From contig CAZHWT010000004.1 in NCBI GenBank assembly GCA_964536215.1, positions 1 to 60,716 on the forward strand: a stretch of 60,716 bases of DNA, read 5' to 3'. How positions within the stretch are numbered: the stretch's first letter is position 1; every line of letters begins with the position of its first letter. The notes beneath the pieces were generated by a model. That model was given only the letters and a program-made list of their open reading frames with translations, was not told the origin of the DNA and searched no databases. Of the stretch, positions 16,849-60,714 are shown in pieces. The stretch comes from an uncultured Candidatus Saccharibacteria bacterium. GTDB lineage: Bacteria; Patescibacteriota; CAZHWT01. A program made the position numbers and the translations under genes.

Positions 16849-17205
16849 TTAACCTTCTCCATCCAGCGCCACTGCCTGTAAAATTACTCGACGTAACTTC
16901 TCTTCATCAACAACCTCATCCTTAGTCAAATTAATCGACCGATGTGACTTGGAATCAAGGCCGCTATTAAATAACCCCAAACCATCCAGCTGTGCGCCGT
17001 GAAAAAAGTTAATTTTAACATGGTCCTTAAAAGCCGAAATAGCCATAATCATCCTCTTGCCCACAAAAATCGGCACATCCCACTTCCAATCTTCGGTCAA
17101 ATCAGGAGCTGTTTCATGAATAAAATTCCGGTAATAAGCCAACTTCTCACCACGCCAATCACTCAGTTCCGCCACATAGGCATCGACTCGCTCATTAGTA
17201 GACAT
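16849..17205 (-). CDS. DUF1801 (YdhG-like) domain protein
   Basis: 118 aa; W..E.KW..P.F..... and KDHV.I.F pattern of the family; 13 nt downstream of the preceding gene. Confidence 0.72.
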   Translation of the reverse strand: MSTNERVDAYVAELSDWRGEKLAYYRNFIHETAPDLTEDWKWDVPIFVGKRMIMAISAFKDHVKINFFHGAQLDGLGLFNSGLDSKSHRSINLTKDEVVDEEKLRRVILQAVALDGEG

Positions 17206-18179: not shown

Positions 18180-18347
18180 CTTCTATCTCCTGTCGAAGCA
18201 ACATTCTGGTCAGCCGTGATTATATGCGCTCACCTCTGCTAAAACAAGCCTCAATATAGCAGATACTACTCATGATCTAAATTACGATACGAACTTACTC
18301 CGCACGTCGGATGTCAGTATCTATTCCAGCACCGGCAAAGCTATAAA

Positions 18348-18363
18348 CCCCGATTAAATCGGG
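18348..18363. repeat. hairpin family B copy
   Basis: CCCCGATTAAATCGGG. Confidence 0.8.
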
Positions 18364-18480
18364 TTAAACCATAAGATACGACTTTCGGAACATGGTAGCT
18401 CAGAGAAGTTCGGGAATATTTTACCCAATCAGACATGGGCTATAGCCATAAACACCGCTTTAATCAAAGTAAATCAAAAA

Positions 18481-18517
18481 TTTAACACCGTTAAACTTAT
18501 TTGTTAAGTGGTATAAT
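18481..18517 (+). promoter_or_regulatory. palindrome TTTAACACCGTTAAA + 16 nt + TGGTATAAT promoter
   Basis: palindrome 18481-18495; TATAAT 18512-18517; in-frame GTG at 18525 lies 7 nt after the -10 box. Confidence 0.6.
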
Positions 18518-19581: not shown

Positions 19582-19700
19582 CCAAACCAATCCAAGTAAC
19601 TCTTGTCCGCCTCTGGCGGAAATAACCAATAACCCTGCAAGGGATTCTCAATCAGGTCGAGAATGACAACAAACAGAGCGCTTCACCCTTCAACCTTCAA
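19582..19700 (-). repeat. C-A composite element plus shared tail AACAAACAGAGCGCTTCACCCTTCAACCTTCA
   Basis: hairpin A 19596-19610; hairpin C 19631-19657; the tail is identical to 23866-23901. Confidence 0.88.
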
Positions 19701-19727
19701 CCTTCAACCTGTAACCTATAACCTATA
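19677..19727 (+). repeat. heptad array CCTTCAA x3, CCTGTAA, CCTATAA x3
   Basis: seven tandem 7-mers read directly. Confidence 0.85.
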
Positions 19728-19888
19728 ACCTATAACCAGATTCATCCCTCGTTTCCCGCGCTCCAGTACGACGTGCCCAAAATGCAAAAACCCTCTACTC
19801 AATACTCGCTCTCGCCCTCTCACACGTACAATTGCCACCACCAGCCACCATCATTTATACTAAATCTATAACCATAAAAGGAGTAAAT

Positions 19889-22259: not shown

Positions 22260-22380
22260 ATGCATATCCTTTACTATATTTGTTTAGTAGGCAAGTCGTG
22301 AGTCGGCAAGAGACGCCTGCCCGTAATGCGTACTTCATAATTCGTAATTCTGCAACCCTCGTCTACTCGAAAATAGTTTG

Positions 22381-22397
22381 CCCCGATTAAATCGGGG
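22381..22397. repeat. hairpin family B copy
   Basis: CCCCGATTAAATCGGGG. Confidence 0.85.
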
Positions 22398-22464
22398 TTT
22401 GCGGTAGAAAAACCTACTCGCCTACTCCCGACTTGCCTACTACTCATACTTCGCGCCTCTATCC

Positions 22465-22494
22465 CCTTACTCCTATAGCCTCCAGTTGCACGCC
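22465..22494 (+). repeat. third copy of the CCTTMCTCCT-GCCTCCAGTTGCA box
   Basis: CCTTACTCCTATAGCCTCCAGTTGCACGCC; compare 5764-5794 and 12690-12719. Confidence 0.7.
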
Positions 22495-22646: not shown

Positions 22647-22683
22647 TTTAACACTGTTAAATTTTTATGTCAAGTGGTATAAT
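22647..22683 (+). promoter_or_regulatory. palindrome TTTAACACTGTTAAA + 16 nt + TGGTATAAT promoter of the TetR gene
   Basis: palindrome 22647-22661; TATAAT 22678-22683; the ATG at 22690 lies 6 nt after the -10 box; geometry matches 18481-18517. Confidence 0.65.
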
Positions 22684-23500: not shown

Positions 23501-23517
23501 CCCCGATTCAATCGGGG
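23501..23517. repeat. hairpin family B copy flanked by CCTTCA heptads
   Basis: CCCCGATTCAATCGGGG, followed by TCAACCTTCAA. Confidence 0.85.
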
Positions 23518-23596: not shown

Positions 23597-23616
23597 GTAC
23601 GTACACGTGTACGTAC
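23597..23616. repeat. 20-bp perfect palindrome GTACGTACACGTGTACGTAC
   Basis: self-complementary; followed by ATAGGTATCTTTATCTCTG; a related copy lies at 44729-44783. Confidence 0.8.
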
Positions 23617-23666: not shown

Positions 23667-23743
23667 ATCGTATATCGTTAATCGTAAATCGTAACTTGTC
23701 CAAGTAACTCCTGTCCGCCTCTGGCGGAAAGTAACTAATAACC
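23667..23743 (-). repeat. heptads (ATCGTWW x4) + A half of the C-A composite
   Basis: ATCGTAT ATCGTTA ATCGTAA ATCGTAA, then CTTGTCCAAGTAACTCCTGTCCGCCTCTGGCGGAAAGTAACTAATAACC (hairpin A 23714-23728). Confidence 0.85.
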
Positions 23744-23842: not shown

Positions 23843-23926
23843 GGGATTCTCGATCGGGTCGAGAATGACAACAAACAGAGCGCTTCACCCTTCAACCTTC
23901 ACCCTTCAACCCCGATTCAGTCTGGG
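23843..23926 (-). repeat. C half of the C-A composite + shared tail + degenerate B hairpin
   Basis: GGGATTCTCGATCGGGTCGAGAATGACAACAAACAGAGCGCTTCACCCTTCAACCTTCA; B-like CCCCGATTCAGTCTGGG 23910-23926; separated from the A half by a ~100-bp insert. Confidence 0.85.
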
Positions 23927-24036
23927 TCAACCTTCAACAAACTCTACCCCACGCTCCAGAATGACATACGCGAAACTCGAAACTCTCTATTCAAAACTCG
24001 TCTTTGCCATCTTAAAAAACTTTGGACGCTACACGC

Positions 24037-30497: not shown

Positions 30498-31760
30498 CTA
30501 ACTCGTGCTGCCCTCAATCAGCTCAACCGGCGGTGCATCAGGCTCATTCGCCGCCAACAACTCCTCCGACTCTCGCGTCGCTTCAGGTGGCGTCATAAAT
30601 ATCGCTCCCAGCATCATCACTATCGATGTCACCAAAATTACGTAAAACAAAATCCCATCATCAAATGTTTTAAACTGCATCGCCTGAGGGATCTGGTAAA
30701 AAAGCACAATGGTTACCAGACCTCGTGGAGTGTAAAACAGTTCCGGCAATACATGTCCTCGACTAAAAACCTGTAAATACATAAAGCGCACCACATACAA
30801 CGCCACTACAATTACCGTTCCGACTGCAATGACCTTTAAACTACCTAACGAATGCAGATTAATCGTGTACCCAAATAAGGTAAAAAACAGAGTCCGGATC
30901 AAAAAGGCTGACTCAGCAGTTACCAATCGCAACGAATAGGTGACATCTTTAACCGCTGCATAGGGGAAAATCTCTCGCGTAAACCGCACTTGGATTTTTG
31001 ACCAGTTATTAATGATCAAGCCAAAAACCAGAATAACCAGCAAGGAAGGGAAACTAAACGTATGCCCCAAAGCATATACCAACAGTAACGAAGCAAATAA
31101 CAAGAAAATTTTAATATCAATGGTAATTTTGGTTAACAACCCCAGTAAAGCCACCGATAGTACAATCGAAACCAAAATAGCCAACCCAATACTGCCAAAG
31201 CGAACTACTACCGTCCCAGCCGAAATAGCACTGCCAGCAATTAAAAAGTTGAATACCAGGATACCTAAAATATCCGACAAAGAAGACTCGTACGTTAAAA
31301 ATTCCCGCTTTTTTTCATTTAGCGATCCTACGCTCGAAGCCACAATCGTACTACTAATAATTGACAGCGGTACTGCGTACACTAAACTAACCAACCATGG
31401 CTGCTGCAACCAAAAGTGAACAATCGAGCTAGTTGCCACCATCGACAAAAACAACACAAACAACGACGACCCCGCCGCATTCCCTATCAACTTCAACTTA
31501 TCCCGAGAGAATTCTAAATCCAGCCCAGCCTCAAGCAAAATAATAATTAAACCAATCACCCCAATAAACTCAACAAAAGCTTGAGGCACTGTCACATAAA
31601 AATCTTGCCAAATTGCCAGCTCCCGAATCCCAATACCCAAAAAGAGTAGCAGTAAAACTGTTGGAATACGATTTTTTTCCGAAATAAGTGAGAAAAAATA
31701 AGACACCACTATCAGACTGCACAACACGATGATAATGGTATAAACGTCAATCCCAGGCAC
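30498..31760 (-). CDS. cation:proton antiporter (Na+/H+ exchanger family), paralog 1
   Basis: 420 aa, about 11-12 TM spans; about 92% identical to the 33672-34934 product by hand alignment. Confidence 0.85.
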   Translation of the reverse strand: MPGIDVYTIIIVLCSLIVVSYFFSLISEKNRIPTVLLLLFLGIGIRELAIWQDFYVTVPQAFVEFIGVIGLIIILLEAGLDLEFSRDKLKLIGNAAGSSLFVLFLSMVATSSIVHFWLQQPWLVSLVYAVPLSIISSTIVASSVGSLNEKKREFLTYESSLSDILGILVFNFLIAGSAISAGTVVVRFGSIGLAILVSIVLSVALLGLLTKITIDIKIFLLFASLLLVYALGHTFSFPSLLVILVFGLIINNWSKIQVRFTREIFPYAAVKDVTYSLRLVTAESAFLIRTLFFTLFGYTINLHSLGSLKVIAVGTVIVVALYVVRFMYLQVFSRGHVLPELFYTPRGLVTIVLFYQIPQAMQFKTFDDGILFYVILVTSIVMMLGAIFMTPPEATRESEELLAANEPDAPPVELIEGSTS

Positions 31761-31899: not shown

Positions 31900-32373
31900 A
31901 TGGCTCAATTAAACGTCGAAGTTCCGCAAAATTCACAAAATATTTTAGGCACTATTACCATTAATGCCCCACTGGCTAAAGTTTTTGAGGCTCACACCAA
32001 TAGTGATCTATTCAAAAAGTGGTGGGGCCGAGGGCACGAGTTAGATGTCCACGCTTTTAAAGCCGAAGATGGTGGCCTCTGGCACATCGGCGAAAAAGCC
32101 GACGATGGCAACACCTACGAATTCCGCGGCTCATTCCACGAAATAGCCCCAAACGAGCGCATTGTCTGGACTTTTGAATTTTTAGGCATGCCAGAGCGGG
32201 GCCACGTCGCCCTGGAAAAGTTGGAGTTTAGCGCCATCGACGACAAAACCACCCAACTCAAAACCACCAGCACTTATCAGTCCATCGAAGACCGCGACGG
32301 CATGATTGCCAGCGGCATGGAAGAAGGCTGGCGACAATCCCTTGATGCTCTAGAAAAAGTCGCCGGCAAATAA
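31900..32373 (+). CDS. SRPBCC/AHSA1-domain protein
   Basis: 157 aa; Aha1/START-like pattern (I.AP...VF.A.T....KWW ... GW...L..L); GGGAG RBS. Confidence 0.8.
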   Translation: MAQLNVEVPQNSQNILGTITINAPLAKVFEAHTNSDLFKKWWGRGHELDVHAFKAEDGGLWHIGEKADDGNTYEFRGSFHEIAPNERIVWTFEFLGMPERGHVALEKLEFSAIDDKTTQLKTTSTYQSIEDRDGMIASGMEEGWRQSLDALEKVAGK

Positions 32374-33671: not shown

Positions 33672-34934
33672 CTAAATATTGGATTCAATCAGCTCAACCG
33701 GCGGCATCTCAGCAGTTGAATCTGTCCCCTCGTCCCCTTCCGCTTGACGCGTCGCTTCGGGCGGCGTCATAAACATCGCCCCCAACATCATCACTATCGA
33801 TGTCACCAAAATAACGTAAAATAAAATCCCATCATCAAAGGCCTTAAACTGCATCGCCTGGGGGATCTGATAAAACAACACAATCGTTACCAAACCCCGA
33901 GGCGTATAAAACAACTCCGGCAGCACATGTCCCCGACTAAAAATCTGTAGATACATAAACCGCACCACATACAACACCACCACAATCGCTGTTCCCACCG
34001 CAATCACCTTCAAACTACCCAACAAATGCAGGTTAATCGTATAGCCAAATAAAGTAAAAAACAGAGTCCGGACTAAAAAGGCCGACTCAGCTGTAACTAG
34101 TCGCAACGAATAGGTTACATCTTTAACCGCCGTATAGGGGAAAATCTCTCGCGTAAACCGAACTTGAATTTTTGACCAGTTATTAATAATCAAGCCAAAA
34201 ATCAGAATAACCAGTAATGAGGGGAAACTAAACGTATGCCCCAAGGCATACACTAATAGCAGCGAGGCAAACAACAAGAAAATTTTAATATCAATCGTAA
34301 TCTTGGTTAACAGTCCCAACAAAGCCACCGATAGCGCAATCGAAACCAAGATAGCCAACCCAATACTACCAAAGCGAACCACTACCGTCCCGGCCGAAAT
34401 AGCGCTGCCAGCAATTAAAAAGTTAAATACTAAAATGCCTAAAATATCTGACAATGATGATTCGTAGGTTAAAAACTCCCGCTTTTTCTCATTCAACGAC
34501 CTCACACTCGAAGCCACAATCGTACTACTTATAATGGATAATGGTACCGCATACACCAAACTAACCAACCATGGTTGCTGCAGCCAAAAATGAACAATCA
34601 ATCCAGTCGCCGCCATCGACAAAACCAGCACAAATAAAGACGACCCAGCCGCATTCCCTATTAGTTTTAATTTATCACGAGAGAATTCTAAGTCTAGCCC
34701 AGCCTCAAGCAAAATAATTATTAAACCAATCACCCCAATAAACTCAACAAACGATTGAGGCACCGTCACATAAACGCCTTGCCAAATCGCCAGCTCCCGA
34801 ATCCCAATGCCCAAAAAGAGTAATAGCAAGACGGTTGGAATACGAGATTTTTCAGAAATAAGAGAGAAAAAATAAGACACCACTATCAAGCTACACAGCA
34901 CAATGATAATGGTATAAACATCAATCCCAGGCAC
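33672..34934 (-). CDS. cation:proton antiporter, paralog 2
   Basis: 19 substitutions in the first ~398 residues relative to paralog 1, then a divergent C-terminal tail. Confidence 0.85.
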   Translation of the reverse strand: MPGIDVYTIIIVLCSLIVVSYFFSLISEKSRIPTVLLLLFLGIGIRELAIWQGVYVTVPQSFVEFIGVIGLIIILLEAGLDLEFSRDKLKLIGNAAGSSLFVLVLSMAATGLIVHFWLQQPWLVSLVYAVPLSIISSTIVASSVRSLNEKKREFLTYESSLSDILGILVFNFLIAGSAISAGTVVVRFGSIGLAILVSIALSVALLGLLTKITIDIKIFLLFASLLLVYALGHTFSFPSLLVILIFGLIINNWSKIQVRFTREIFPYTAVKDVTYSLRLVTAESAFLVRTLFFTLFGYTINLHLLGSLKVIAVGTAIVVVLYVVRFMYLQIFSRGHVLPELFYTPRGLVTIVLFYQIPQAMQFKAFDDGILFYVILVTSIVMMLGAMFMTPPEATRQAEGDEGTDSTAEMPPVELIESNI

Positions 34935-35040: not shown

Positions 35041-35451
35041 TTAGTGACTTTCTGCATGCTTTTTAAAGTTGTCCAAAATGGCTTGCCATCCGTCGCGCTG
35101 CATTTCCTCAGAATTCTCAGCTTCCGGATCAAACGACTGCACAATCTTTACACCATCAGGCGTTGCAGAAAACGCCACCACAACATGCCGACCATCGTCG
35201 ATATCATACTCAATTAACTCATACTCTTTGACTGCAGTATACACACCGCCAAAGTCAAAACTAGCACTGCCGTCTTTAGCTGCCATAGTCGTTTTAAACC
35301 TACCACCTTCACGTACATCATTCTCAGCATCACGAGATTCCCAATCGTCGGCCGCAAAGGCCCAGCCTTCAATATGTTTTGGTTCAACCCAACACTGCCA
35401 GACAGTTGCTATGGGCGCATTGACTACCGTTTGAATAGTTATTAGATTCAT
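35041..35451 (-). CDS. SRPBCC/AHSA1-domain protein
   Basis: 136 aa; V.API..VW......HI..W ... GW..IL.N pattern. Confidence 0.8.
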   Translation of the reverse strand: MNLITIQTVVNAPIATVWQCWVEPKHIEGWAFAADDWESRDAENDVREGGRFKTTMAAKDGSASFDFGGVYTAVKEYELIEYDIDDGRHVVVAFSATPDGVKIVQSFDPEAENSEEMQRDGWQAILDNFKKHAESH

Positions 35452-35544: not shown

Positions 35545-35631
35545 GTATCCCAGATAGATTCTACGGCCTTCCACTTATGTCATTCCCGCGAAAGCGGGAA
35601 TCTGATTCTCGATCAGGTCGAGAATGACAAA
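35545..35631 (+). repeat. D-C hairpin composite with 40-nt leader
   Basis: CAGATAGATTCTACGGCCTTCCACTTATGTCATTCCCGCGAAAGCGGGAATCTGATTCTCGATCAGGTCGAGAATGAC; an inverted copy lies at 50268-50374. Confidence 0.9.
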
Positions 35632-35715
35632 GAAGATAGTTGCCAGCTGGGGATGAATGAAAAAGTGAGTGTGGGGCAGACAAAAAGACCTGGTAGATTT
35701 GAACGAGCAACCTTG

Positions 35716-36084
35716 TTACGTTGCAGATGCGTTAATTTTTTCCAACTGAATGGTCAAAATCTTCTTAATCAACTCGACAGGCAACGGCTCATCTAGCGAA
35801 AATTGAATAGTGCCTTTACCCGAAGTTTTATACCGATGAGTTTCAGGCAATAATTCTGCCATTTCTGACGTAAACGGATACAAGGATACATGCTTCTTCC
35901 AGGCCGCAAAATGTATCATTGCCTTGTCGTTGACTAAAAAGGTGGGTATAGCATAACTAATTACTTCTACTGCTCCCGGCGCTACGCTCTGCACAATGCT
36001 CCGCAGTTGTCGCAAATGAGCCTGCGCTTTAGCTGGATACAACGCTATATACTCATCTATGGTAATTGGCGCACTGCTTGTCAT
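35716..36084 (-). CDS. DUF1801 domain protein
   Basis: 122 aa; IDEYI......A...L..LR..V...AP.A.E.ISY..P pattern. Confidence 0.7.
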   Translation of the reverse strand: MTSSAPITIDEYIALYPAKAQAHLRQLRSIVQSVAPGAVEVISYAIPTFLVNDKAMIHFAAWKKHVSLYPFTSEMAELLPETHRYKTSGKGTIQFSLDEPLPVELIKKILTIQLEKINASAT

Positions 36085-37125: not shown

Positions 37126-37593
37126 ATGCCAAAAGGTTCAACCTTATTTCTAAAAACAATCATCATTTTGTTGGGGCTTATTGTTCTGGCTTTGTGTATG
37201 GTTGTCTTACCCGATGGTATCCGCCACACCAGTAACTGGTACGGCTACCGTCCTCTGCTGGTAGGCATGTATATACCTGCCATTCCGTTCTTTATCGCTC
37301 TCTTTCAAGGGTTTAAACTCTTAGATAACATCGACAACAACCAAATTTTCACCAAGTCCTCAAACAACGCCCTCACTATCATCAAATACTGCGGCCTCAT
37401 AATTGGACTGCTCTACGGCCTGGCTTTGCCTTACATCTACTATCTAGCCCAAATGGATGACGCGCCTGGGGTTATGCTGATTGGCCTGGTCTTTGCCTTT
37501 GCCCCTCTCGGCATTGCCCTGGTAGCCGCTATCGTCCAAAAGCAACTCCAAAATACTATTACTTTAAAGTCGGAGAATGACTTAACGGTCTAA
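37126..37593 (+). CDS. DUF2975 membrane protein
   Basis: 4 TM spans; family-typical C-terminus LKSENDLTV; AGGAG RBS. Confidence 0.72.
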   Translation: MPKGSTLFLKTIIILLGLIVLALCMVVLPDGIRHTSNWYGYRPLLVGMYIPAIPFFIALFQGFKLLDNIDNNQIFTKSSNNALTIIKYCGLIIGLLYGLALPYIYYLAQMDDAPGVMLIGLVFAFAPLGIALVAAIVQKQLQNTITLKSENDLTV

Positions 37594-37599
37594 GTTGCC

Positions 37600-38091
37600 A
37601 TGAAATTCACATCTATATTCCTCGCCAAAGCATTTGTCTATTTCGCTGGTTTGGCTGTACTGACTATTCTAGTTATCATGCTGCCCGAATTGGCCAGAGA
37701 GGAAAAAGCCTCCAACCCTTCCGTATCTTCGGCCTTGCCATACATTATGGGTGCCTGGGTGCTGGCTATTCCCGTGTTTGTGGCCCTGCACCAAACCCTT
37801 AAACTGATCAACTATGTAGCCCGCAACAAAGCAGTATCAGGTGAGTCAGTCAAAGCATTACAACGTATCAAAATTTGCGCCATCATCTTCGGTGTTCTGT
37901 TCATCGTAGCGACAGTGACTGCTCTGACCGCCGCCAAAATAGCCAGCCCCACCGAAGACACTGCCCCTTTTGGCATCATCACCGCCGTCTTTGTCTTTAC
38001 CTCATCCATCATTGCCACTTCCGTCGCCGTCCTGCAGCGGGTTGTACAAAGAGCAATCGCCATCAAAGCAGAAAACGATTTAACAGTCTAA
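37600..38091 (+). CDS. DUF2975 membrane protein (tandem paralog)
   Basis: same topology; C-terminus IKAENDLTV. Confidence 0.72.
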   Translation: MKFTSIFLAKAFVYFAGLAVLTILVIMLPELAREEKASNPSVSSALPYIMGAWVLAIPVFVALHQTLKLINYVARNKAVSGESVKALQRIKICAIIFGVLFIVATVTALTAAKIASPTEDTAPFGIITAVFVFTSSIIATSVAVLQRVVQRAIAIKAENDLTV

Positions 38092-39084: not shown

Positions 39085-39099
39085 TTTAACACTGTTAAA
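39085..39099. promoter_or_regulatory. third copy of the palindrome TTTAACACTGTTAAA
   Basis: identical to 22647-22661; 170 bp upstream of the LPXTG gene; no TATAAT at +16. Confidence 0.5.
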
Positions 39100-42509: not shown

Positions 42510-44462
42510 CTAACGCACCACTCGACCTTTGTTGCGGCGATTATAGTAGACCAGCCCTCCACCCAGAACCAGCAGCACAATACCAACCGTAGTCATCATG
42601 GCCATCTGCGCCCCAGTAGCCGGCAGTGCTAAATCTGAATCAGACGCAGGCGAACTGGAAGACCCTGGCGTTGGCGTCGGTGTACTCGTCGGATCAGTAG
42701 CCCCTACTACCGCCAAGCCAACCGGATCATCAATCACCCCTGTAGCCGGATTAAGGTCAAGTGGTCCATTATCGACAATAGTGTAGCTGGCTCGGACCAC
42801 TGATTGACCACCAATCTCCTGACGGGTAATAGTGGCATCGCTAATGGTCGTATAAGCCTGTGTGGTAGGATTGTATTTTCGCAGCACCAAATCCTGGTCG
42901 TTTTCGTCGTAGTAATACAATTGCACCGTCGTCGATCCATCACTGCAATTAGCCGAAAAATGCAGCAAACCAGCAAAGTAATTATACTCCCCGTCCTGTT
43001 TTGCCTTTGCCATTTCCGCTTCCGAAGACGCCTCGGTAATAGCGCACGTATCACTCAAAACCGCCGACATATAGGCGTCAGTCACCGGGTTAACAAAGCT
43101 AACCACATGAGGCTGTTGACTGTCCAACGTTCCATCATTATTAGCGTCACCATCATTGGGTGCATTATTTTCTACCGTTGCCGCAATACCATCTGCGTCA
43201 GAAGTGGTAAAGTTCCAGCTCGTCTTGTCGGCAATAGCATAATCGCTCATACCTCCTTCGTCACTAAAGTAGAAAACATCATCAAAGGTAACATAATAGT
43301 TAGTAGATGGCTCCAAATCCATAGCCGGATCTATAGTAATGGTATCGCTGTCATAACCAGAGAAAGTCCCATATTCGTCATCATAGTTCTCAATCCCCAC
43401 ATATTCCGAATCATCGGCCGATCGGTAAATGTGTAAAACACCTTCCGATGCCGTCACGTTTCGGTTAAACGTAATCACTAGATTACTATCAACGGCCACG
43501 TCGGTCGCATTATCGGCTGGACTAAGACTAACAATCTCCGCTTCAGGCTGGGCATTAGCCGTAATCTGGAAAGAAGTCGCTGATACTGTCGGCAAATGCT
43601 CTTCATCGCTACCAAACTCAACTACATAATACTGGCGCTGAATAGTACAGGGGACATCATCCCATTTACCGCCCTGACCACCAGAGAACCAGATTTGAAC
43701 ACAATCCAGGCTTTCAACACCACTCGGCTCATACTGAGCCCAGTTAGTAAAGGTGCCTTCTCCCACTGGATTACCACCATCAGCCTCATCCCAAAACTCC
43801 GTTCCAGCTTCCGGGCCCGTCATCCATTTCCAGTGCCCTTCACTATCTAATTCGTTAGCCCCAATCCATCCATCCTGATCTAGTCGCGAAGCAACAAAAT
43901 CATGCTCGTCTTGAGAGGTAATGGTCGCCAAATACCCGTTAACGCCACCATACGTCATACCTTCGGCTGCCGCCTCCGCCGCTGCCCAGGTTATCCCCGA
44001 CTCAGCCGCCTCCACCACCTGGTAAACGTGTCCATTGTCCGGATTATAGACATCGCCATCACCACCACCTAAACGCGCTTCAATTGTTACTGTCCCAGTT
44101 TCAGTCGGGTAAAACCGCAACGTCGCCAAAGCCGCGTTAAGTTTTGACCTAGTGCCAGACATTTGAATATTCTGACCAAAACTGTCGCCATCAAACGTCA
44201 CTCCAGTGGTGGAGGTAAAGTTAAGCGAACCGCTGGGGGCATACAAATTGACGTGCAGGTTCTCATCACCCTCGCCATTAATCGTCAGGTCAGTCACCGG
44301 TATATGCTCCAACACATAGCCCGTTTTATTAGCTACAGTCGAAAAGGCTTCACCAGCCGCTACCGTTGACCGAATTGGCAGATTGATGCTCAATGCCCCA
44401 ATCGCTATTGACAGCATCGCGCTAATAGCGAATCCCAACTTAACCGTTTTTGTTTTATTCAT
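42510..44462 (-). CDS. LPXTG-anchored surface protein with metazoan-type C-type lectin domain
   Basis: CTLD signature WIGANELDSEGHWKWMTG...CVQIW....GKWDDVPC; Ig-like segment; shared pre-anchor module; LPATG + TM + RRNKGR tail. Confidence 0.85.
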   Translation of the reverse strand: MNKTKTVKLGFAISAMLSIAIGALSINLPIRSTVAAGEAFSTVANKTGYVLEHIPVTDLTINGEGDENLHVNLYAPSGSLNFTSTTGVTFDGDSFGQNIQMSGTRSKLNAALATLRFYPTETGTVTIEARLGGGDGDVYNPDNGHVYQVVEAAESGITWAAAEAAAEGMTYGGVNGYLATITSQDEHDFVASRLDQDGWIGANELDSEGHWKWMTGPEAGTEFWDEADGGNPVGEGTFTNWAQYEPSGVESLDCVQIWFSGGQGGKWDDVPCTIQRQYYVVEFGSDEEHLPTVSATSFQITANAQPEAEIVSLSPADNATDVAVDSNLVITFNRNVTASEGVLHIYRSADDSEYVGIENYDDEYGTFSGYDSDTITIDPAMDLEPSTNYYVTFDDVFYFSDEGGMSDYAIADKTSWNFTTSDADGIAATVENNAPNDGDANNDGTLDSQQPHVVSFVNPVTDAYMSAVLSDTCAITEASSEAEMAKAKQDGEYNYFAGLLHFSANCSDGSTTVQLYYYDENDQDLVLRKYNPTTQAYTTISDATITRQEIGGQSVVRASYTIVDNGPLDLNPATGVIDDPVGLAVVGATDPTSTPTPTPGSSSSPASDSDLALPATGAQMAMMTTVGIVLLVLGGGLVYYNRRNKGRVVR

Positions 44463-44728
44463 CAAATAAGTGTTCTCCTATTAAATAAGTACTGTATATA
44501 ATTTCAGGTTCGAAGGCATCTCTCAGGCGCCAGCCGTCCGCTTAATCGGTCAACGTGTATATATCAATTGAAATTACTGCCAGCCAAGCCAAAATCATAC
44601 TCGACTGCATAGTCAAACCGCGTCTTAAGAGTACGTATTAAATGCTTGTCTGTCTAGTCAGAAAACAGGTTGTATATTTTCTTACTCATCCATCAAGACA
44701 CAACGTGAGCCCCTCATATACTCAAAAA

Positions 44729-44783
44729 GTACGTACATGTGTACGTAAACGTGTACGTACATACCTTATTTTATCTCTGATAA
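44729..44783. repeat. GTACGTACA-type palindrome element, second locus
   Basis: GTACGTACATGTGTACGTAAACGTGTACGTACATACCTTATTTTATCTCTGATAA; shares ACGTGTACGTACATA..T.TTTATCTCTG with 23606-23637. Confidence 0.75.
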
Positions 44784-46513: not shown

Positions 46514-46807
46514 AGTATACCAAACTATACACCCTGACTTTCAGAAAGTCTCAGCTCAGAGAGCATCGGTAAATTCACTCAATACAAATAAACTTCTCGA
46601 ATGCCCATCCTTTTATTGCTCTTACTAACACAATTGCGGCACATGAAAATTCCTGGTTGTATCTGGGTGATTTTGCACAAACTCCTCACGCAGCCGAGGC
46701 TCAATAAAGCCATCAACAACGCAATCCTGCAATCTGCGCCTCGGACACCCGACACCCGACTAGATTCTATCGCCACCGCTCCAGAATGACAAAGCCCTTA
46801 CCTTCAA

Positions 46808-46824
46808 CCCCGATTCAATCGGGG
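46808..46824. repeat. hairpin family B copy flanked by CCTTCAA heptads
   Basis: CCTTCAACCCCGATTCAATCGGGGTCAACCTTCAACC. Confidence 0.85.
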
Positions 46825-46844
46825 TCAACCTTCAACCAAAATGC

Positions 46845-46850
46845 TATACT
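46845..46850 (+). promoter_or_regulatory. -10 box TATACT, 6 nt upstream of the ATG at 46857
   Basis: GCTATACTTGCCCCATG. Confidence 0.4.
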
Positions 46851-46856
46851 TGCCCC

Positions 46857-49251: not shown

Positions 49252-49596
49252 ATGCCAAGCAAACCAATCACAACGATGCAAGATGCCCAGACATTCGTTA
49301 AAAACTTTGCCCAAAATAACAACTGGGTTGATGAGCCCAATATCGATAAATTTGACCACCTGCACGAGGAATTAATCGAAATGTCTAAAATATTGCGGTA
49401 TAAATCTTTGGCAGACAGGCAGCAGGCCATCATCGATCACCGCGACCAACTAATGGACGGACTAGGTGATCTCTTCTTCGCCACTTGTCGCTTAGCCAAT
49501 CAATTAAATCTCGATATTACCGAAGCCTTTAACACCGTTAAAGGACAAATCGAAACCAGGTACACCAATCAAAACCCTGAGGGTATTAAAAAGTAA
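49252..49596 (+). CDS. MazG-like nucleotide pyrophosphohydrolase (small)
   Basis: HLHEELIEMSK...LGDLFFATCRLANQLNLDI pattern. Confidence 0.7.
   Translation: MPSKPITTMQDAQTFVKNFAQNNNWVDEPNIDKFDHLHEELIEMSKILRYKSLADRQQAIIDHRDQLMDGLGDLFFATCRLANQLNLDITEAFNTVKGQIETRYTNQNPEGIKK
49528..49542. promoter_or_regulatory. fourth copy of the palindrome TTTAACACCGTTAAA, inside a CDS
   Basis: exact match to 18481-18495; encodes AFNTVKG near the 3' end of the MazG-like gene. Confidence 0.35.
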
Positions 49597-49694: not shown

Positions 49695-49820
49695 GATCAG
49701 GTAAGATCGCTAGACTTATTTAAAAATAAGACATAGCTTAAGTAGATGATTCAAAATAAATGCGGCACAATCTGAACTATGAGACGAAATAAGTAATCTA
49801 ACCAGACTCCACCAAACAGC

Positions 49821-50186
49821 TCACTCCGGAATTTCCGCTATAGCTTCAATTTCAATAAATATTTTGGGATCACCTGGGAACGCTGGCAATGCTGACACTT
49901 CAACCGTGGTCCTAGCCGGCCGGTGGTCATTAAAAAACACCGCATACATCTGGTTCATCCGCTCAAACTGAGCCAAGTCCGTCATAAAGACGGTCGTCTT
50001 AACTACGTTATGTTCATTCAGCCCAGCTGACTCCAAGACATTTTTAAGCTTCAGAAAAACATTTGTCACCTGAGACTCAAAGTCGCCAGGAATAACCCCA
50101 GTCTTAGCATCAACTCCAACCTGACCGGATATAAAAACTAAATTACCAGATTTATAAAAAGGACTTAATGGCGCATTCATACTCAA
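49821..50186 (-). CDS. ridA: RidA/YjgF-family reactive-intermediate deaminase
   Basis: 121 aa; GQVG..........D...Q....L.N......AG ... ART.V.V..LP....IEIE pattern. Confidence 0.9.
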   Translation of the reverse strand: MSMNAPLSPFYKSGNLVFISGQVGVDAKTGVIPGDFESQVTNVFLKLKNVLESAGLNEHNVVKTTVFMTDLAQFERMNQMYAVFFNDHRPARTTVEVSALPAFPGDPKIFIEIEAIAEIPE

Positions 50187-50267
50187 AGTATAGCACTAAC
50201 CATACCTAGATACCTCAATCAACCCCCCACATCCACATTTCATCTACCCCAGCTGACAACCATCTTC

Positions 50268-50374
50268 CTTGTCATTCTCGACTGGACCCCGATCATATCG
50301 GGGTGAATCGAGAATCAGATTCCCGCTTTCGCGGGAATGACATAAGTGGAAGGCCGTAGAATCTATCTGAGATA
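50268..50374 (-). repeat. D-C hairpin composite (inverted copy) with hairpin B nested in the C loop
   Basis: the reverse complement matches 35545-35631 over about 70 nt; B unit CCCCGATCATATCGGGG at 50287-50303 replaces the 3-nt C loop. Confidence 0.9.
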
Positions 50375-50404
50375 ATCAAAAAAGTGCATGTGGGTCAGCT
50401 CAAT

Positions 50405-50920
50405 CTAACAATCAAATACAAACCAGCAAGCATGATTGCGCAGTCTCTGATCATCAAGAACCAACGACTTAATCTCAACTGGCAGTTGCGCTCTCTGCCA
50501 TTGACATTCTTCTCGACCACTCTTTTGACTATCGGACAGGTCAAAACTAGCTTGCACTGCTTTAATAGCATATGCCGCCGCCCCAAGTTCATGGGCCGCC
50601 ACATGGGCAGTCAAAGCCGCTTGAGCTGCAGCATAAGCCGCATATCGCGCCGCCCCTTTTAGATCCCGCGCCGCTGCATTCGCATGCCCACCCGCCGCAC
50701 GAGCCTCCATCATGGCAATTTCGCCACCAGCCCACGCCCGAGCACACTCAATAGCCCGCCGCGGCCGCCCATCATCCACCCGCTCCCCCTCAAATAACCC
50801 CAACACATGCTCCGCACAATCCGCCGCCCACAGCGCCAACAACCGATGATCACCATCAGTCAAACTCCCGCCTCTACGAATAGTAATAAATCGAGGATCC
50901 CGTGGTTGAGTAAGAATCAT
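50405..50920 (-). CDS. alpha-helical Ala-rich protein resembling putative immunity (Imm5-like) proteins
   Basis: LLALWAADCAEHVLGLFE...DGRPRRAIECARAWA...AA.AA..A pattern; local GC is clearly higher than the flanks. Confidence 0.5.
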   Translation of the reverse strand: MILTQPRDPRFITIRRGGSLTDGDHRLLALWAADCAEHVLGLFEGERVDDGRPRRAIECARAWAGGEIAMMEARAAGGHANAAARDLKGAARYAAYAAAQAALTAHVAAHELGAAAYAIKAVQASFDLSDSQKSGREECQWQRAQLPVEIKSLVLDDQRLRNHACWFVFDC

Positions 50921-51068
50921 AAGCCAATTCTATCAGAGCAGGGAAAGCCAAAGATATTCACTACAGTCAAAATCAACAAAGCCTAGCAGGTCCGCATTCT
51001 CCCAACATGTTGACACATAGCTCGTTTAACTATACTATCCACCCGCGTATCCGCATTTAACAGGAGAG

Positions 51069-57154: not shown

Positions 57155-57341
57155 AGACGAGTAGGCAAGTAGGGTACGCAAATGCCAAGGTGCAAGAGTC
57201 CAACTGCCAAATACGGTTAATCGCTCACTGCAAATCGTTAATCGTAAATCGTAAACCCCGATTCAATCGGGGTCAAGTCGAGAATGACAAAGAATAAACG
57301 ATTTGCGATTATCGATTAACAGCCTGTCCGCCTCTGGCGGA
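57155..57341 (-). repeat. mosaic intergenic element, copy E (inverted and rearranged)
   Basis: octamers + last ~40 nt of the core (57174-57214); CGAT heptads; hairpin B 57256-57272; half C (GTCGAGAATGAC); heptads; hairpin A 57327-57341. Confidence 0.8.
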
Positions 57342-57347
57342 ATCTAC

Positions 57348-57377
57348 AATAAATATCCAATTAATTGGATATTTATT
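57348..57377 (-). terminator. 30-bp perfect palindrome overlapping the LamG gene stop codon
   Basis: AATAAATATCCAATT|AATTGGATATTTATT; AT-rich stem, no separate T tract. Confidence 0.45.
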
Positions 57378-60300
57378 CCCCCCACCTCACCGCCCCACCG
57401 TTATACAACGTCTTAATCTGGGCATCTGTCAGCATGTAGTTAAATATCTGCACATCATCAAGCAAGCCTTCATAGAAACCGGTTGCCACTCCTCCGGCAT
57501 AATACATTCCAATTGTATTAACTCCAGGGCCTACCGTTTGCCCCATTCTGCTGCTAGATGGAGCGCTAAAATTTATAAGCACTCCATTCCGATATATAGA
57601 CGTAACACCTTCAGGGTCTATGGTGATCAGAACATGTTGCCACTGGTCAGTTTGAATAACTTGCTTGCTCATAACTTGAGAACCGCAACCAGTCCGCAAC
57701 CATAGCTGAGAATTGTAGAGAACCAGATATTGGCTAGCCGGCGTACAACCACTAGTAGGCCCCCAGGCATACAGTGCTCTGTAGTGAGCGTCTACACTAC
57801 TTGGCTTAATCCACATAGAAATAGTCATATTAGAAGTTGGCAGCACCGTATTGGTTACATCCACATAATCATCCACCCCATCAAAACTCATGGCCGAGTT
57901 ATACTTCCCACTCTTAGCCATCCCCCAAGCACTGGCCGCATTCTCACAGTTTCCAACAGCCGTTGTCCCACCACTCCCTAAGCTCAACACTCCATCCAAT
58001 CCATTTCCCGACGAATCATGAATCGCTGTCCCACTACATTCGTCAAACTTATAATGCGCAATTGGTTTACCATAGTTATAATCCCAGGCAACTTGAGCCG
58101 GCGTGCGGGCATAGTCGTAAACACGTATTTCATCCAACTGCCCATGCAGATGTTCAAAGTAGCTACCAGTACCATCCTGTTTACTCCCAACCGTAAAGGG
58201 GATAGTCGATGACCCAAGTGGTGTGCCACCAGTACTACGAGACTCCAGAATACCGTTAATATACAGCTGCTTAGTTGACCCTGTCTGAGTACCAACAACA
58301 TGGTACCACCGTCCCGTTACTGGCACAGTGCTAGAAGCAATCCGACTACCACCGCCACCACCATCCCCGGTCCAAAACGCAAAATGGTTGTCGGTATCTA
58401 TTTGAAGAAGATACTGTTGACTCACCCCCGGTCGCCACTTACCCACAAACGTGTAAAAATGGCTATCAATCACCTCCAGCTGTACCCATGCCTCCACAGT
58501 GATACTGGTGGGGTTAAGATCCGCCTCACTACTAGTAGTCGTATAATCATCACCATCAAAGTAGCCGGCTTTACCAGTCCTGCCCGGCCCATACTGCGCT
58601 CCACTACCATGCCAGCTCCCCTCGTGATTGTTACCCGACACATCCGCAACCGTAGCCCCACTCCCCTCCTCAAAGTCATATGCCACCACCGGCGCAGCAC
58701 AATCAGAGGTATCCCCTGGCACACAATACTTGCTCCCAGCGGAATTAGACGGTTTAGTAGCAGTTTGGCCAGTTCCGGTGGTAGTTGATTCAGTAGAGGT
58801 GCTGCCAATAATACTTCCCGCAGATTGATTGTAGTCGACGAGAATAGCTTGAGGAGTAAGTGCAGCATTGTACAGCTTTACTTCATCAATAGAACCTTGA
58901 AAGTAAAGTGGTGTTCCGGTTGTTCGTGAGCCAATTCTAAAGGTGGTACTCGTAGCGCTCTTAGTGCCAGTAAAAGGAACTCTTGCCCCCAACTTCCCAT
59001 CCACATACACCAAAACGCCAGATCCATCAAATACGCCTAAAACATGCTGCCACTTATTTACTTCTAGAGGTTGTGGATAGGTAGCAATAAAATTAGCAGA
59101 CCCATTAGTAACCACAAAAGCTATAGAGCTTCCTTGTTGTTGCAGCTCATATTGAGCACTGCTAACTGACCCTCCCGACTTGCCAGCAATGGTGTGATAC
59201 CCCAATAAAGTAGCGGGCTTAATCCAAGCACTCAACGTAACCGGCCCTCGAATATCCGCCATAGCAGAATTCTCACTCTCCACAAAATCATCCACCCCGT
59301 CAAACCTAATACCCCCTCGCGTCTTACCATCTACACTCCACCCAGAATCAGCCACAGCTGGACTAGCCACATTTTTAACAGTCCCATCCAACCCACTTCC
59401 TGCCACCCCAGAGTTGCGTGCCACTACCCCTTTGCCTTCATCAAACTTCCAATACCCCACCGGAGAATCTACTGCCGATTGTCCCGCCTGCATATCCTGC
59501 ACAACCTGTCCGGGAGTACGGGCATAGTTATAAATCTTAAACTCATCAAGCAAGCCTTTTAATCGATAGAGACTAGTTGTATCATCACCAGCCAGCATAA
59601 GACTATCTACCGATATGCCCGCAAAGGCAGCGTCCAAGTCACTCGTTAATGTGCCATCTAGATAGGCCTTAATTCTACCGTCGCTTGCAGTAGCAACAAG
59701 AGCAATATAATGCCACTGATCATCGTCCAAATGTTTGCCTGGAAGAAACACTTTAGGAGTCGATTCTCCTAGATACCCATACAGACCATTGTGAGCATCG
59801 CCATTAAAATAAATTGCTGCGTTGCCGTTGCTTTGAAAAATGCGATAGAAGCTACCTGGTTGCATAGGCGTCCTTTGCCACCAACCTATTGATATATCCT
59901 TTGCAGCAAAAGACATATCAGCAACATCTATAACCCCATCTACACCGTTAAAACTTCCAGCCTTACCAACCTGCCCCGCCACATACCGATCACTGGTTCC
60001 ACTCCACGTCCCAGTATGTCCATTCCCCGACTTGTCATAAACGGAATTTCCCGACCCTTCTTCAAAATCATAATACGCCACCGGCTTGGGAGCGTAGGTA
60101 TAGAGTTGCTGAACCTCTGACGATGTGAGGGCTCGATTGTAGATCCGAGCTTCATCCATACCGCCATCAAACTGAGCGCTGCCATTAACTCTACCGATAT
60201 AAGCACCCCCTCCGTTATTTGCATGACGTACAGCTGGGTCCCAGGTTGCAGTAGAAGACAACTCTCCATTTAGATAGAAGGACGCTGCAGACTTCTCATT

Positions 60301-60714
60301 ATCAACGATTAACACTAAATAATTCCAGGAATTGAGTTCAGTTACTGTTGTCGTAAGCTCTAGATAACTTGGAGTGCCGGAGGACAACGAAACTAAAGCA
60401 TGGAAACTTGAACTATTCCCGTTGCCATAGTCAATTCGGGTATTGCCGTTCTCGCCCAGCATCCCTCGACGATTTAACTCCGGATAAATACTACTATTGG
60501 CCCAAATGGCATATGTTCTACTTTGAGATGTTGTAGGCGTCCCAAGTGAAATATAATCATCCACCCCATCAAACCTCCCTCCATTGCCAAACTTACCAAT
60601 CCCCACTGCCGTTCCATTAATTGTCTGCCCATTATTCCCATTCCCACTAGCATCCTTAACTTCCCCACTCGTCCCATTCCAACTACTCTCATCCATCTTC
60701 CAATACCCCACCAA
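57373..60714 (-). CDS. giant LamG/concanavalin-A-like lectin repeat protein (N-terminus runs off the window)
   Basis: five modules, each opening with Y(W/Y/D)(K/F)(F/M)(D/E)E..G....D.SGNG..G and closing with (L/I/M)D(E/D).(R/K/Q)(I/L/V)(Y/F)(N/D)..LT; the ORF is open to the window edge. Confidence 0.85.
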   Translation of the reverse strand: MVGYWKMDESSWNGTSGEVKDASGNGNNGQTINGTAVGIGKFGNGGRFDGVDDYISLGTPTTSQSRTYAIWANSSIYPELNRRGMLGENGNTRIDYGNGNSSSFHALVSLSSGTPSYLELTTTVTELNSWNYLVLIVDNEKSAASFYLNGELSSTATWDPAVRHANNGGGAYIGRVNGSAQFDGGMDEARIYNRALTSSEVQQLYTYAPKPVAYYDFEEGSGNSVYDKSGNGHTGTWSGTSDRYVAGQVGKAGSFNGVDGVIDVADMSFAAKDISIGWWQRTPMQPGSFYRIFQSNGNAAIYFNGDAHNGLYGYLGESTPKVFLPGKHLDDDQWHYIALVATASDGRIKAYLDGTLTSDLDAAFAGISVDSLMLAGDDTTSLYRLKGLLDEFKIYNYARTPGQVVQDMQAGQSAVDSPVGYWKFDEGKGVVARNSGVAGSGLDGTVKNVASPAVADSGWSVDGKTRGGIRFDGVDDFVESENSAMADIRGPVTLSAWIKPATLLGYHTIAGKSGGSVSSAQYELQQQGSSIAFVVTNGSANFIATYPQPLEVNKWQHVLGVFDGSGVLVYVDGKLGARVPFTGTKSATSTTFRIGSRTTGTPLYFQGSIDEVKLYNAALTPQAILVDYNQSAGSIIGSTSTESTTTGTGQTATKPSNSAGSKYCVPGDTSDCAAPVVAYDFEEGSGATVADVSGNNHEGSWHGSGAQYGPGRTGKAGYFDGDDYTTTSSEADLNPTSITVEAWVQLEVIDSHFYTFVGKWRPGVSQQYLLQIDTDNHFAFWTGDGGGGGSRIASSTVPVTGRWYHVVGTQTGSTKQLYINGILESRSTGGTPLGSSTIPFTVGSKQDGTGSYFEHLHGQLDEIRVYDYARTPAQVAWDYNYGKPIAHYKFDECSGTAIHDSSGNGLDGVLSLGSGGTTAVGNCENAASAWGMAKSGKYNSAMSFDGVDDYVDVTNTVLPTSNMTISMWIKPSSVDAHYRALYAWGPTSGCTPASQYLVLYNSQLWLRTGCGSQVMSKQVIQTDQWQHVLITIDPEGVTSIYRNGVLINFSAPSSSRMGQTVGPGVNTIGMYYAGGVATGFYEGLLDDVQIFNYMLTDAQIKTLYNGGAVRWGE

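Follow-up and report, generated by a model that had tools for sequence, protein, structure and literature searches.

Hairpin elements in the spacers of a Candidatus Saccharibacteria contig: a REP-type pair with a 17-bp palindrome in one loop, in a probable mosaic of selfish DNA

We analyzed the short hairpin-forming elements in the spacers of a 60,716-nucleotide (nt) stretch of DNA from an uncultured Candidatus Saccharibacteria bacterium (contig CAZHWT010000004.1 of assembly GCA_964536215.1, positions 1 to 60,716; hereafter the window), and in particular the spacer at 50271-50341. This spacer is made of two hairpins of different families, here called C and D, placed tail to tail within a dispersed repeat of about 135 bp, and the loop of C holds a 17-bp palindrome of a third family, B. 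A fourth family, A, is a 19-nt unit found in other spacers. The explanation that we consider probable is that these elements are non-coding selfish DNA and not regulators. C and D would be a pair of repetitive extragenic palindromes (REPs), B would have been inserted in the loop of C, and the spacers would form a mosaic like the Neisseria intergenic mosaic elements (NIME) or the bacterial interspersed mosaic elements (BIME). To the extent that a comparison of copies can establish it, the A, B, C and D elements are discrete insertion units whose stems are conserved as structure on one strand.

The dispersed repeat is present twice in the window. Alignment of the copy at 35545-35690 (+) with that at 50215-50370 (-) revealed a difference of exactly 21 nt, located at the C loop and corresponding to the 17 bp of B plus 4 nt. 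In the frame of C the filled site reads GTCATTCTCGA-C-TGGA-[B]-TGAA-TCGAGAAT, in which a normal 5-nt loop is followed by B and by an imperfect copy of the four bases before B; the flanks of the B at 50287, TGGA (50283-50286) and TGAA (50304-50307), are an imperfect 4-nt direct repeat. On this alignment the copy at 35545-35690, whose C (35604-35628) has an empty loop, is the unfilled counterpart of the 50271-50341 locus. The heads of C and D at 50271-50341, GTCA and TGAC, are able to pair with each other, and the region 50262-50350, folded as single-stranded DNA, adopted a three-way structure of -23 kcal/mol (z = -5.8). The locus lies directly past the stop codon of an Imm5-like gene (50405-50920, - strand). 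In D, at 50326 or 50340, Logan assemblies of the same strain break off, as they do at 57247, at the tandem array beside a B copy. Since these independent short-read assemblies end in D or beside B, the repeats are what fragments the public assemblies of this organism. Exact window proteins were matched only in short Logan contigs (runs SRR118438xx), and all 17 Logan contigs with window proteins were 99.96-100% identical to the window, without indels.

C and D fit a superfamily of REPs that has already been described. The CGTC-tagged REPs are defined by an unpaired CGTC or TGTC head (CCTC being allowed), a stem of 8-9 bp with A and T as its first two bases, a loop of 4 or 5 nt and a short tail; the loop has 4 nt in family 1 and 5 nt in families 2-4, the tail is mostly CCA, family CGTC-1 is equated with the dRS3 repeat of Neisseria, and the Rickettsia repeats RPE-4 and RPE-6 are also included (Di Nocera, De Gregorio and Rocco 2013, PMC3733652). 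In the window, every intact scorable C and D carries the head TGTC, and the decayed D at 10120 has CGTC. The stems are of 8 bp with AT first, the arms being ATTCTCGA/TCGAGAAT in C and ATTCCCGC/GCGGGAAT in D. The loop of D is GAAA and that of C is CCTGA or CCCGA, two long loops consisting of 5 nt plus a 21-nt insertion; the short C loop counts 3 nt if a T.G pair is included in the stem. The full forms are thus TGTC-ATTCTCGA-CCTGA-TCGAGAAT-C for C and TGTC-ATTCCCGC-GAAA-GCGGGAAT-C for D. Tails in the window are CTG/CAG, CCC and CTC, and CCA predominates in related copies of other genomes. D also shows the inverted repeat of dRS3, ATTCCC-N8-GGGAAT, in the form ATTCCC GCGAAAGC GGGAAT, and its 25-mer GTCATTCCCGCGAAAGCGGGAATCT is identical to a dRS3 copy of Neisseria gonorrhoeae (L374 301-325, NZ_CP119140, PLSDB; the prefix L designates retrieved loci throughout). 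This 2.17-Mb sequence is entered in PLSDB as 'plasmid' and is evidently a chromosome. The core of D, d(GCGAAAGC), is reportedly a classic DNA mini-hairpin of extraordinary stability (Hirao et al. 1989).

The same hairpins were found in other lineages. In an any-loop scan of the Genome Taxonomy Database (GTDB) representatives, the matches listed for the exact C with a 5-nt loop were in Saccharibacteria, Microgenomates, Curtissbacteria, Nomurabacteria, Dehalococcoidales and 'Gammaproteobacteria' metagenome-assembled genomes (MAGs), and C variants with a 9-nt loop were listed in Nitrospirales, Methylophaga, Psychromonas and Vibrio inusitatus. Long-loop C matches in the GTDB representatives lay in coding DNA and were as numerous as expected by chance for the pattern. 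Among the retrieved loci, 139 perfect 8-bp hairpins stood behind a GTC head, against 1-11 behind control heads, with many different stems and mostly a CCA tail.

The elements of the window share with CGTC REPs the (C/T)GTC head, the 8-bp AT-first stem, the 4/5-nt loop and, apparently, the short tail, as well as the intergenic location, the frequent inverted dimers, the mosaic spacers and the lack of a known dedicated transposase. They differ in host, which is Patescibacteria-like here whereas five phyla, mostly Alphaproteobacteria, are reported in PMC3733652; in their dimers, which here join two families (C with D) tail to tail and there are mostly head-to-head; and in their tails, CTG, CCC or CTC here and CCA there. 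NIME arrays, in which dRS3 is the ATTCCC-N8-GGGAAT unit, are stated not to be seen outside Neisseria. As in those arrays, dRS3-type hairpins are interleaved in the window with other short repeats whose content varies by spacer; however, the interleaved repeats are here 7-8-bp tandem arrays, A and B, and there RS elements of 50-150 bp (PMC1797815). Tagged hairpins and compensatory stem changes are also known from the REP/BIME of Escherichia coli and from the systems of REP doublets forming hairpins (REPINs) and their REP-associated tyrosine transposases (RAYTs). In these systems, inverted doublets are likewise the likely replicative unit and folded single-stranded DNA recognised by a Y1 transposase is the working model (PMC3116915). 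Yet the hairpins here are tagged with TGTC (C, D, E and F) or with a 3' CARG (A), B is untagged, and the GTAG of GTAG REPs/REPINs was not seen; neither the window nor the surroundings of 218 related hairpins elsewhere yielded a RAYT gene.

All four hairpin families occur only between open reading frames (ORFs) and far more often than expected by chance. A (TCCGCCAGAGGCGGA) has 8 exact copies against 0 expected, B (CCCCGATTNAATCGGGG) 7 copies at one mismatch or fewer against 0, the C head GTCATTCTCGA 11 matches at one mismatch or fewer against 0.6, and D 3 copies against 0.01. Chance palindromes were rejected as an explanation, the counts being far above those of shuffled sequences. REPs of the C/D type amount to about 15 copies in the 60 kb of the window, all intergenic, and every D is tail to tail with a C (10120/10145, 35579/35604 and 50318/50271). 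Copies are found in divergent, convergent and tandem spacers, with mixed orientation relative to genes and to the replication strand. An initial annotation, made from the sequence alone, had described four hairpin families recurring in intergenic DNA, and these counts bear it out. Its eight exact A copies and the decayed one at 11294 are real, although one coordinate was off by 10 (19596 for 19606); its B sites were all found, that at 23910 being decayed, and it had missed a decayed B at 10158. It had correctly seen B in the C loop at 11108-11153 and 50271-50316, to which a decayed case at 10145-10190 and a half C at 57256-57288 can be added. No other nesting was seen within the window, so its statement that the families nest inside each other was too broad. 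The tail-to-tail pairing of D and C, two further hairpin families (E and F, Table 1) and 7-8-bp tandem arrays in nearly every long spacer had escaped it. It was right in the resemblance to REP/BIME elements, the mosaic being closest to the Neisseria NIME arrays. It had also held that the sequences could not be placed, and that a match to known repeats would tell against its proposal; C and D do match the CGTC/TGTC REPs (PMC3733652), and D is dRS3 over 25 nt.

As the window alone offered too few copies for a covariation test, copies from other genomes were added. Sequences anchored only on GTCAT...ATC, a search that demands no pairing, were bimodal in pairing. All six inner positions were paired in 30 of 143 sequences with a 4-nt loop and in 32 of 99 with a 5-nt loop, compared with 0 of 71 and 3 of 58 in the respective controls. 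All 23 of the E-type copies (GTCA-NN-CTGA...GAAG-NN-T) had both free positions paired, and four types of pair were used. When a stem had one non-Watson-Crick position, this was a G.T on the GTC strand in 22 of 25 copies (8 of 11 distinct stems) and a C.A in one, and the G.T wobbles of the window copies at 19643 and 10145 obey the same rule. Because transitions should yield G.T and C.A equally, this bias indicates that one defined strand is folded. Since the orientation of the copies is mixed relative to genes, some being antisense to the sole local transcription, the folded strand is more likely DNA than mRNA. These comparisons support selection on the stem structure, on one strand and across genomes. 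The initial annotation had already proposed that the structure itself is selected, from two compensated pairs, TCCCGC/GCGGGA (35585) versus TCCAGC/GCTGGA (10125) and, in the outer stems of the E pair, ATTCT/AGAAT versus ATCCT/AGGAT. Both pairs are correct, and covariation and G.T bias support the proposal across genomes.

B is composed of two 8-bp arms and one central base, and 5 of its 10 copies in the window have exact direct-repeat flanks. Scans with B returned at least 120 stretches in metagenomes and 9 in the viral collection; the results that follow refer to 133 distinct copies, from metagenomes and the window, among the matches listed. Identical 4-nt direct repeats stood on both sides of B in 56 of the 133 copies, against 8.4% with permuted partners, and inverted flanks in only 7, five of these being A4/T4 and terminator-like. 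The search pattern imposed an A before and a T after the palindrome, which biased the spectrum of duplicated tetranucleotides toward TNNA; it comprised TCAA (25), TTGA (16) and then TAAA, TTAA, TTTA, TTCA, TAGA and TGAA. B was also found inside another B, with TTGA duplicated (L364), and where arm and loop meet in other CGTC REPs, here with a duplicated TGAA (L264, L280 and L320). A 23S ribosomal RNA (rRNA) gene contains two copies (L294, metagenome contig Ga0209210_1005827, 6682-6698 and 6801-6817). One of them, at the conserved AAAUCAACCGAGAUU site, makes 21 nt where the Rfam consensus has 2, a net insertion of 19 nt flanked by a duplicated GAG, and the other takes the place of a native 23S rRNA helix. 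The neighbouring 16S gene has a group I intron. Other B matches that by their appearance are rRNA-borne are those of L332, L345, L249, L338 and L347. In the copies compared, B thus behaves like an insertion unit of 17 bp that duplicates 4 bp of its target and prefers TCAA-like sites.

A rule by which B would strictly target loops, the initial annotation having read the nesting as loop-specific, was rejected. Only 14 of the 133 copies (about 8 without A/T runs, hence some 6-10%) were within a larger hairpin of at least 7 bp, compared with 2.4% of control positions. With B in many contexts at TCAA-like sites and few copies in larger hairpins, loop-specific targeting is not supported. As a precedent for insertion into a REP loop, insertion sequences are reported to target these loops (IS1397; Tobes and Pareja 2006; both as cited in PMC3116915). 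In the window, all four C hairpins that carry B have it in one orientation and with one right junction ([T/C]GAA; ..GA-[B]) or have the right side replaced, and the stretch left of B is in each composite exactly a canonical 5-nt loop. Given the shared junction, the simplest history is a single insertion, after which the composite spread or was passed on by conversion; these copies probably descend from this one event and were later copied. A decayed B in the most diverged pair and none in the 35.6-kb sister copy indicate that the history also includes loss or exchange.

The exact copies of A start at 273, 315, 5696, 8681 and 12616 on the forward strand and at 19606, 23714 and 57327 on the reverse strand. 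The unit is TCCGCCAGAGGCGGA followed by CARG, a discrete 19 nt made of hairpin and tag. A module GGTTATTAGTTACTT-[A]-AGTTACTTGGA surrounds five of the A copies, and alignment showed that its copy at 11150-11200 is without exactly the 19 nt TCCGCCAGAGGCGGACAGG. A scan of the GTDB representatives with the 17-mer of A gave at least 117 stretches, and 134 A copies among the matches listed were analyzed. Positions +3 and +4 past the A string, which the search did not impose, were conserved (A/G, then G in 73%); the boundaries were sharp, both flanks were without information, and no target duplication was found at any boundary offset in these 134 copies. By record title, the hosts in the matches listed include many Patescibacteria classes, Bacteroidota, Ignavibacteria, Desulfobacterota, Chloroflexota, Omnitrophota and others. 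Of the listed copies, 6 of 134 lay in the loop of a hairpin of at least 7 bp (3 of 670 controls) and 11 of 134 between long direct repeats (5 of 670 controls). In one MAG contig (L074 2327-2400, CAYUHI010000085) A was found inside A, TTCCGCCAGA[CTTGTCCGCCTTTGGCGGA]GGCGGACAAG, the inner 19 nt being reversed and placed exactly between the loop and the 3' arm of the outer A. A C hairpin and three more hairpins with GTCAT heads are present in the same 500 bp. Loops of E-type REPs are filled by A-like hairpins in L221 and L350. In a few contigs of Bacteroidota and Chloroflexota (L138, L190, L129 and L201), the match to the A 17-mer falls on a type-II tRNA gene, at its long variable arm; this overlap may be chance or a hint to the origin of A.

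The history that we favor for these spacers can be outlined as follows. B with a 4-bp target copy would have entered the C loop, producing the 21-nt difference from the 35.6-kb sister, and the composite would then have spread or been exchanged among loci. The spacers would be mosaics like those of Neisseria NIME or E. coli BIME, built from the CGTC-type REPs C, D, E and F, from B and A, and from 7-8-bp tandem arrays. A trans-acting enzyme may recognise the folded single strand reading GTCAT..., hence the need for the stems to stay paired; for the CGTC REPs this enzyme would be encoded outside the window. B would be moved by an enzyme making 4-nt staggered cuts at TCAA-like sites, and loops would be hit for the AT-rich sites that they offer and not for being loops. 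Recognition of a folded single strand has moderate support for C and D, and the duplications support a 4-nt staggered cut in the case of B. We also entertain, tentatively and with some doubt, that A and B form a class of micro mobile DNA not yet described, below every bacterial MITE (miniature inverted-repeat transposable element) in size and moved by an unrecognised trans-acting enzyme, which would keep their sequence across distant phyla and invade hairpins, tandem arrays and the 23S rRNA genes of Patescibacteria. A and B appear to be undescribed in the literature searched, where their literal sequences met only short hairpin RNA and primer coincidences. The small dispersed repeats of Nostoc (SDR1-8; Elhai et al. 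2008, Genome Res 18:1484) are reportedly of about 20-27 nt, hairpin-forming, nested, placed in heptamer arrays and without a known transposase, and by that description similar in size and habit to A and B. They are reported only in Nostocaceae, whereas A and B, of 19 and 17 nt, occur in many phyla and B has a 4-bp duplication.

Several observations weigh against this account. No transposase, integrase, Y1/HUH or GIY-YIG domain, and thus no mobilising enzyme, was found by Pfam searches in the about 50 ORFs of the window, and a crude screen of 265 ORFs located at most 400 bp from 218 CGTC hairpins elsewhere was negative for HUH-like motifs; PMC3733652 reports no dedicated transposase for CGTC REPs either. 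By our own arithmetic, about 70 chance matches to the A 17-mer are expected in 596 Gb, so that some of the distant matches are chance. TCAA and TTGA account for 41 of the 56 direct-repeat flanks of the listed B copies, retrieved with a pattern of forced A and T, although the left-right identity at the two free positions could not be created by the forced bases and the TTTG/TTTG at 22381, outside the pattern, is also identical. Inside C, the flanks of B are imperfect direct repeats (TGGA/TGAA and CAGA/TGAA). B resembles MITEs in its terminal inverted repeats (8-bp arms), its target duplication of fixed length (4 nt) and its lack of coding capacity. However, MITEs are tens to hundreds of bp long and share their ends with an autonomous insertion sequence, the bacterial ones listed in PMC3184786 measuring 67 to 637 bp, whereas B has 17 bp and neither a parent insertion sequence nor any longer element with B ends was found for end pairs 40-6000 bp apart in the 2.5 Mb of retrieved loci. 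Seventeen bp is very short for a two-ended transposase substrate. Finally, no filled/empty polymorphism between strains was seen among the public contigs, all of them identical to the window.

Clustering of the ORFs in the retrieved loci revealed no conserved neighbour gene around A or C copies and no transposase around B copies, where the only enriched family was GIY-YIG. This stand-alone GIY-YIG nuclease, of about 90 amino acids, was present in 12 of the 129 B loci listed and is the most widely shared ORF family of B-bearing contigs. Its ORF stands in nine places behind a tRNA-like 5' fragment, made of acceptor and D-arm, whose D-loop holds B and a duplicated TCAA (Table 1). The possibility that B had been inserted in the D-loops of true tRNAs was discarded: excision of B plus 4 nt restored no tRNA recognised by ARAGORN, and these are tRNA-like 5' fragments. 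A tblastn search with six of the GIY-YIG proteins gave no match in the window. The nuclease is a lead, and not evidence, for the enzyme that moves A or B.

Other explanations of the mosaic can be weighed against selfish insertion. The identity of D with a dRS3 copy brings to mind that phage-encoded transposase/recombinase integrates filamentous phage at dRS3, and that NIME have been proposed to promote the exchange of neighbouring surface-protein genes in Neisseria (PMC1797815). The mosaic of the window could likewise be maintained because it promotes variation of adjacent genes. Several mosaics do lie beside large surface-protein genes (Laminin_G_3, 57373-60714; immunoglobulin (Ig)-like/LPXTG, 42510-44465), and the conservation of the stems on one strand would suit a recombinase acting on folded DNA. 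However, the window is without recombinase or prophage, the phage collection gave no match for the D+C pair, most mosaics flank ordinary housekeeping or accessory genes, and neither the target duplications of B nor the 19-nt indel of A would be explained. We consider this role unlikely; it is compatible with the selfish nature of the elements and not exclusive of it.

A function of the hairpins at the RNA level, in termination, 3'-end stabilisation or processing, with the B-containing C as a longer variant of the same stem-loop, seems still less probable to us. The stable stems, the G.T pairs tolerated on one strand, the GAAA tetraloop of D closed by a C-G pair and the position of the locus just past the stop codon of the Imm5-like gene would agree with such a role, and REPs are described, in the abstract of PMC3733652, as mostly downstream of coding regions and plausibly transcribed. 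Yet an intrinsic terminator is a GC-rich stem with a T-run behind it, co-oriented with the upstream gene, and no T-run comes after any of the hairpins; no terminator-like site was found in 49800-51000, and at the gathering threshold Rfam recognised one tRNA in the window and no family for the hairpins. Moreover, copies occupy the divergent promoter spacers 18180-18500, 22266-22485 and 46514-46856, those at 19643 and 23845 are between + genes and read on the - strand, and the same elements are inside rRNA genes and tandem arrays elsewhere. We find it very improbable that C with B is instead ancestral and the short-loop C derived from it by replication slippage that deleted the inner palindrome, B having never been inserted. 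Palindromes are indeed deletion-prone, the most diverged D+C pair (10120-10190) already has a decayed B while the sister of the 50.3-kb copy has none, and the flanks of B in C are not perfect direct repeats. Against this, C occurs in many other lineages in its short-loop form, and the retrieved C copies are all without B; B occurs alone in more than 120 unrelated contexts with target duplications; the short loops have the canonical 5 nt of the family; and exactly this canonical loop remains left of B in each composite.

Table 1. Positions of the hairpin elements and other listed features in the window, and of B-associated modules in other contigs
Feature	Position	Strand	Remarks
C hairpin with B in loop	50271-50316	+	TGTC-tagged REP, CGTC-2 type; head GTC 50271-50273, arms 50274-50281 and 50308-50315, original loop CTGGA 50282-50286, tail C 50316
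B micro-palindrome CCCCGATCATATCGGGG	50287-50303	none	perfect palindrome, variant of family B
D hairpin GTCATTCCCGCGAAAGCGGGAATC	50318-50341	-	CGTC-1/dRS3 type, tail to tail with C
Dispersed-repeat copy carrying D+C	50215-50370	-	about 135 bp, 156 bp counting B
Second dispersed-repeat copy	35545-35690	+	D 35579-35602 (+); C with empty 5-nt loop 35604-35628 (-)
Third D+C pair, decayed	10120-10190	+	D variant 10120-10143 (+) with one A.A mismatch and one C-G to A-T change that is compensated; C variant 10145-10190 (-), two G.T wobbles and decayed B at 10158-10174 in loop
C hairpin with B (11124-11140) in loop	11108-11153	+	junction CCAGA-[B]-TGAA, same as 50271
C hairpin, 5-nt loop CCCGA	11247-11271	+	followed by small CCCTTGCAGGG hairpin and module with decayed A
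C hairpin, 5-nt loop, one G.T wobble	19643-19667	-	A-carrying module follows
C hairpin, 5-nt loop	23845-23869	-	
Half C (5' arm + loop CTTGA) fused to B (57256-57272)	57256-57288	-	3' arm replaced by 7-bp tandem array
E-type pair, tail to tail	11014-11095	11014-11039 (+), 11070-11095 (-)	GTCAT[T/C]CTGAG...CGAAG[A/G]ATC, tandem G.A internal loop
F-type hairpin GTCATTCTGGAGCG..GATAGAATC	46763-46790	-	decayed relative 23938-23965 (-)
B	20-36		flanks TTTA/TTTA; edge of GGTTTAC array
B, last base G>T	18348-18364		flanks TAAA/TAAA
B	22381-22397		flanks TTTG/TTTG
B	23501-23517		flanks CATC/TCAA; beside CTTCAAC-type units
B, decayed, no longer clean palindrome	23910-23926		flanks TCAA/TCAA; inside CTTCAAC array
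B	46808-46824		flanks TCAA/TCAA; 21-nt removal restores perfect CCTTCAA repeat
Two A units, TCCGCCAGAGGCGGACAGG	273-333 (273-291, 315-333)	+	
A unit	5696-5714	+	
A unit	8681-8699	+	between CTAGAAC heptamer units
A unit	12616-12634	+	in module GGTTATTAG(T/C)TACTT..AGTTA
A unit	19602-19620	-	
A unit	23710-23728	-	
A unit	57323-57341	-	
Decayed A unit TCCTCCACTGGCGAAACAG	11294-11312	+	
Empty site for A	11176-11191	+	module GGTTATTAGTTACTT^AGTTACTTGGA, junction between 11183 and 11184
tRNA-like fragment/B/GIY-YIG module	L296 3307; L319 1223; L335 5183; L337 5608 and 5912; L274 1122 and 1420; L281 4238; L277 1024		unrelated metagenome contigs
Paralogous pair, Na+/H+ exchanger	30498-31760 / 33672-34934		
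Paralogous pair, AHSA1-like	31900-32373 / 35041-35451		
Paralogous pair, DUF1801	16849-17205 / 35716-36084		
Paralogous pair, DUF2975	37126-37593 / 37600-38091		

The window has 47% G+C. Its GC skew is about -0.25 along all 60 kb (range -0.08 to -0.37), irrespective of how the genes are oriented; the AT skew is mostly positive and the strand asymmetry unusually strong. Its genes are ordinary chromosomal ones, among them a major facilitator superfamily (MFS) transporter, an amylase, an M32 peptidase, glycosylases, NUDIX proteins and large LPXTG/Ig-like surface proteins. For the M32 peptidase, a Patescibacteria MAG has the best relative (48% identity), and tblastn of the window ORFs against the retrieved loci gave no closer relative. 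A 31-mer present twice in the window was matched by a single foreign MAG among the GTDB representatives, which therefore do not include the source genome. The four paralogous pairs of Table 1 have their members a few kb apart, the Na+/H+ exchanger genes having identical stretches of 23 nt in common. The 7-8-bp tandem arrays of the long spacers include CGATTAG x8, GCGATTA x9, CTTCAAC, AACCTAT, ACTTGCCT and others (for example at 69-123, 5535-5600, 12429-12483, 19681-19737 and 23883-23911), often with A or B inside or at the edge, and are reminiscent of the heptamer repeats of heterocystous cyanobacteria.

Other palindromes were observed as well. A fifth one, TTTAACA-NN-GTTAAA, has 4 copies against 0.04 expected (18481-18495, 22647-22661, 39085-39099 and 49528-49542); three of them are upstream of ORFs (18501+, a TetR-like gene and 39270+), the copy at 49528 is inside ORF 49252-49596, and the motif looks like an operator. 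The palindrome GTACGTACA-NN-TGTACGTAC is present once at 23597-23616 and as an overlapping tandem pair at 44729-44760, against 0 expected. Two perfect palindromes made only of A and T, at 4426-4461 and 15099-15132, have stems of 15-16 bp and the same 13-mer TTATTATATAATA.

By their fit to the CGTC REPs, C and D take a known REP superfamily, including the dRS3/NIME design held to be specific to Neisseria, into a Patescibacteria-like genome, and raise the question of why one 25-mer persists in such distant hosts without a known transposase. The G.T bias of the stems tells which strand folds and narrows the search for an enzyme acting on CGTC REPs. If A and B were truly mobile at 17-19 nt, they would set a new lower size limit for transposable DNA, and they would explain some of the short insertions in the rRNA genes of candidate-phyla bacteria.

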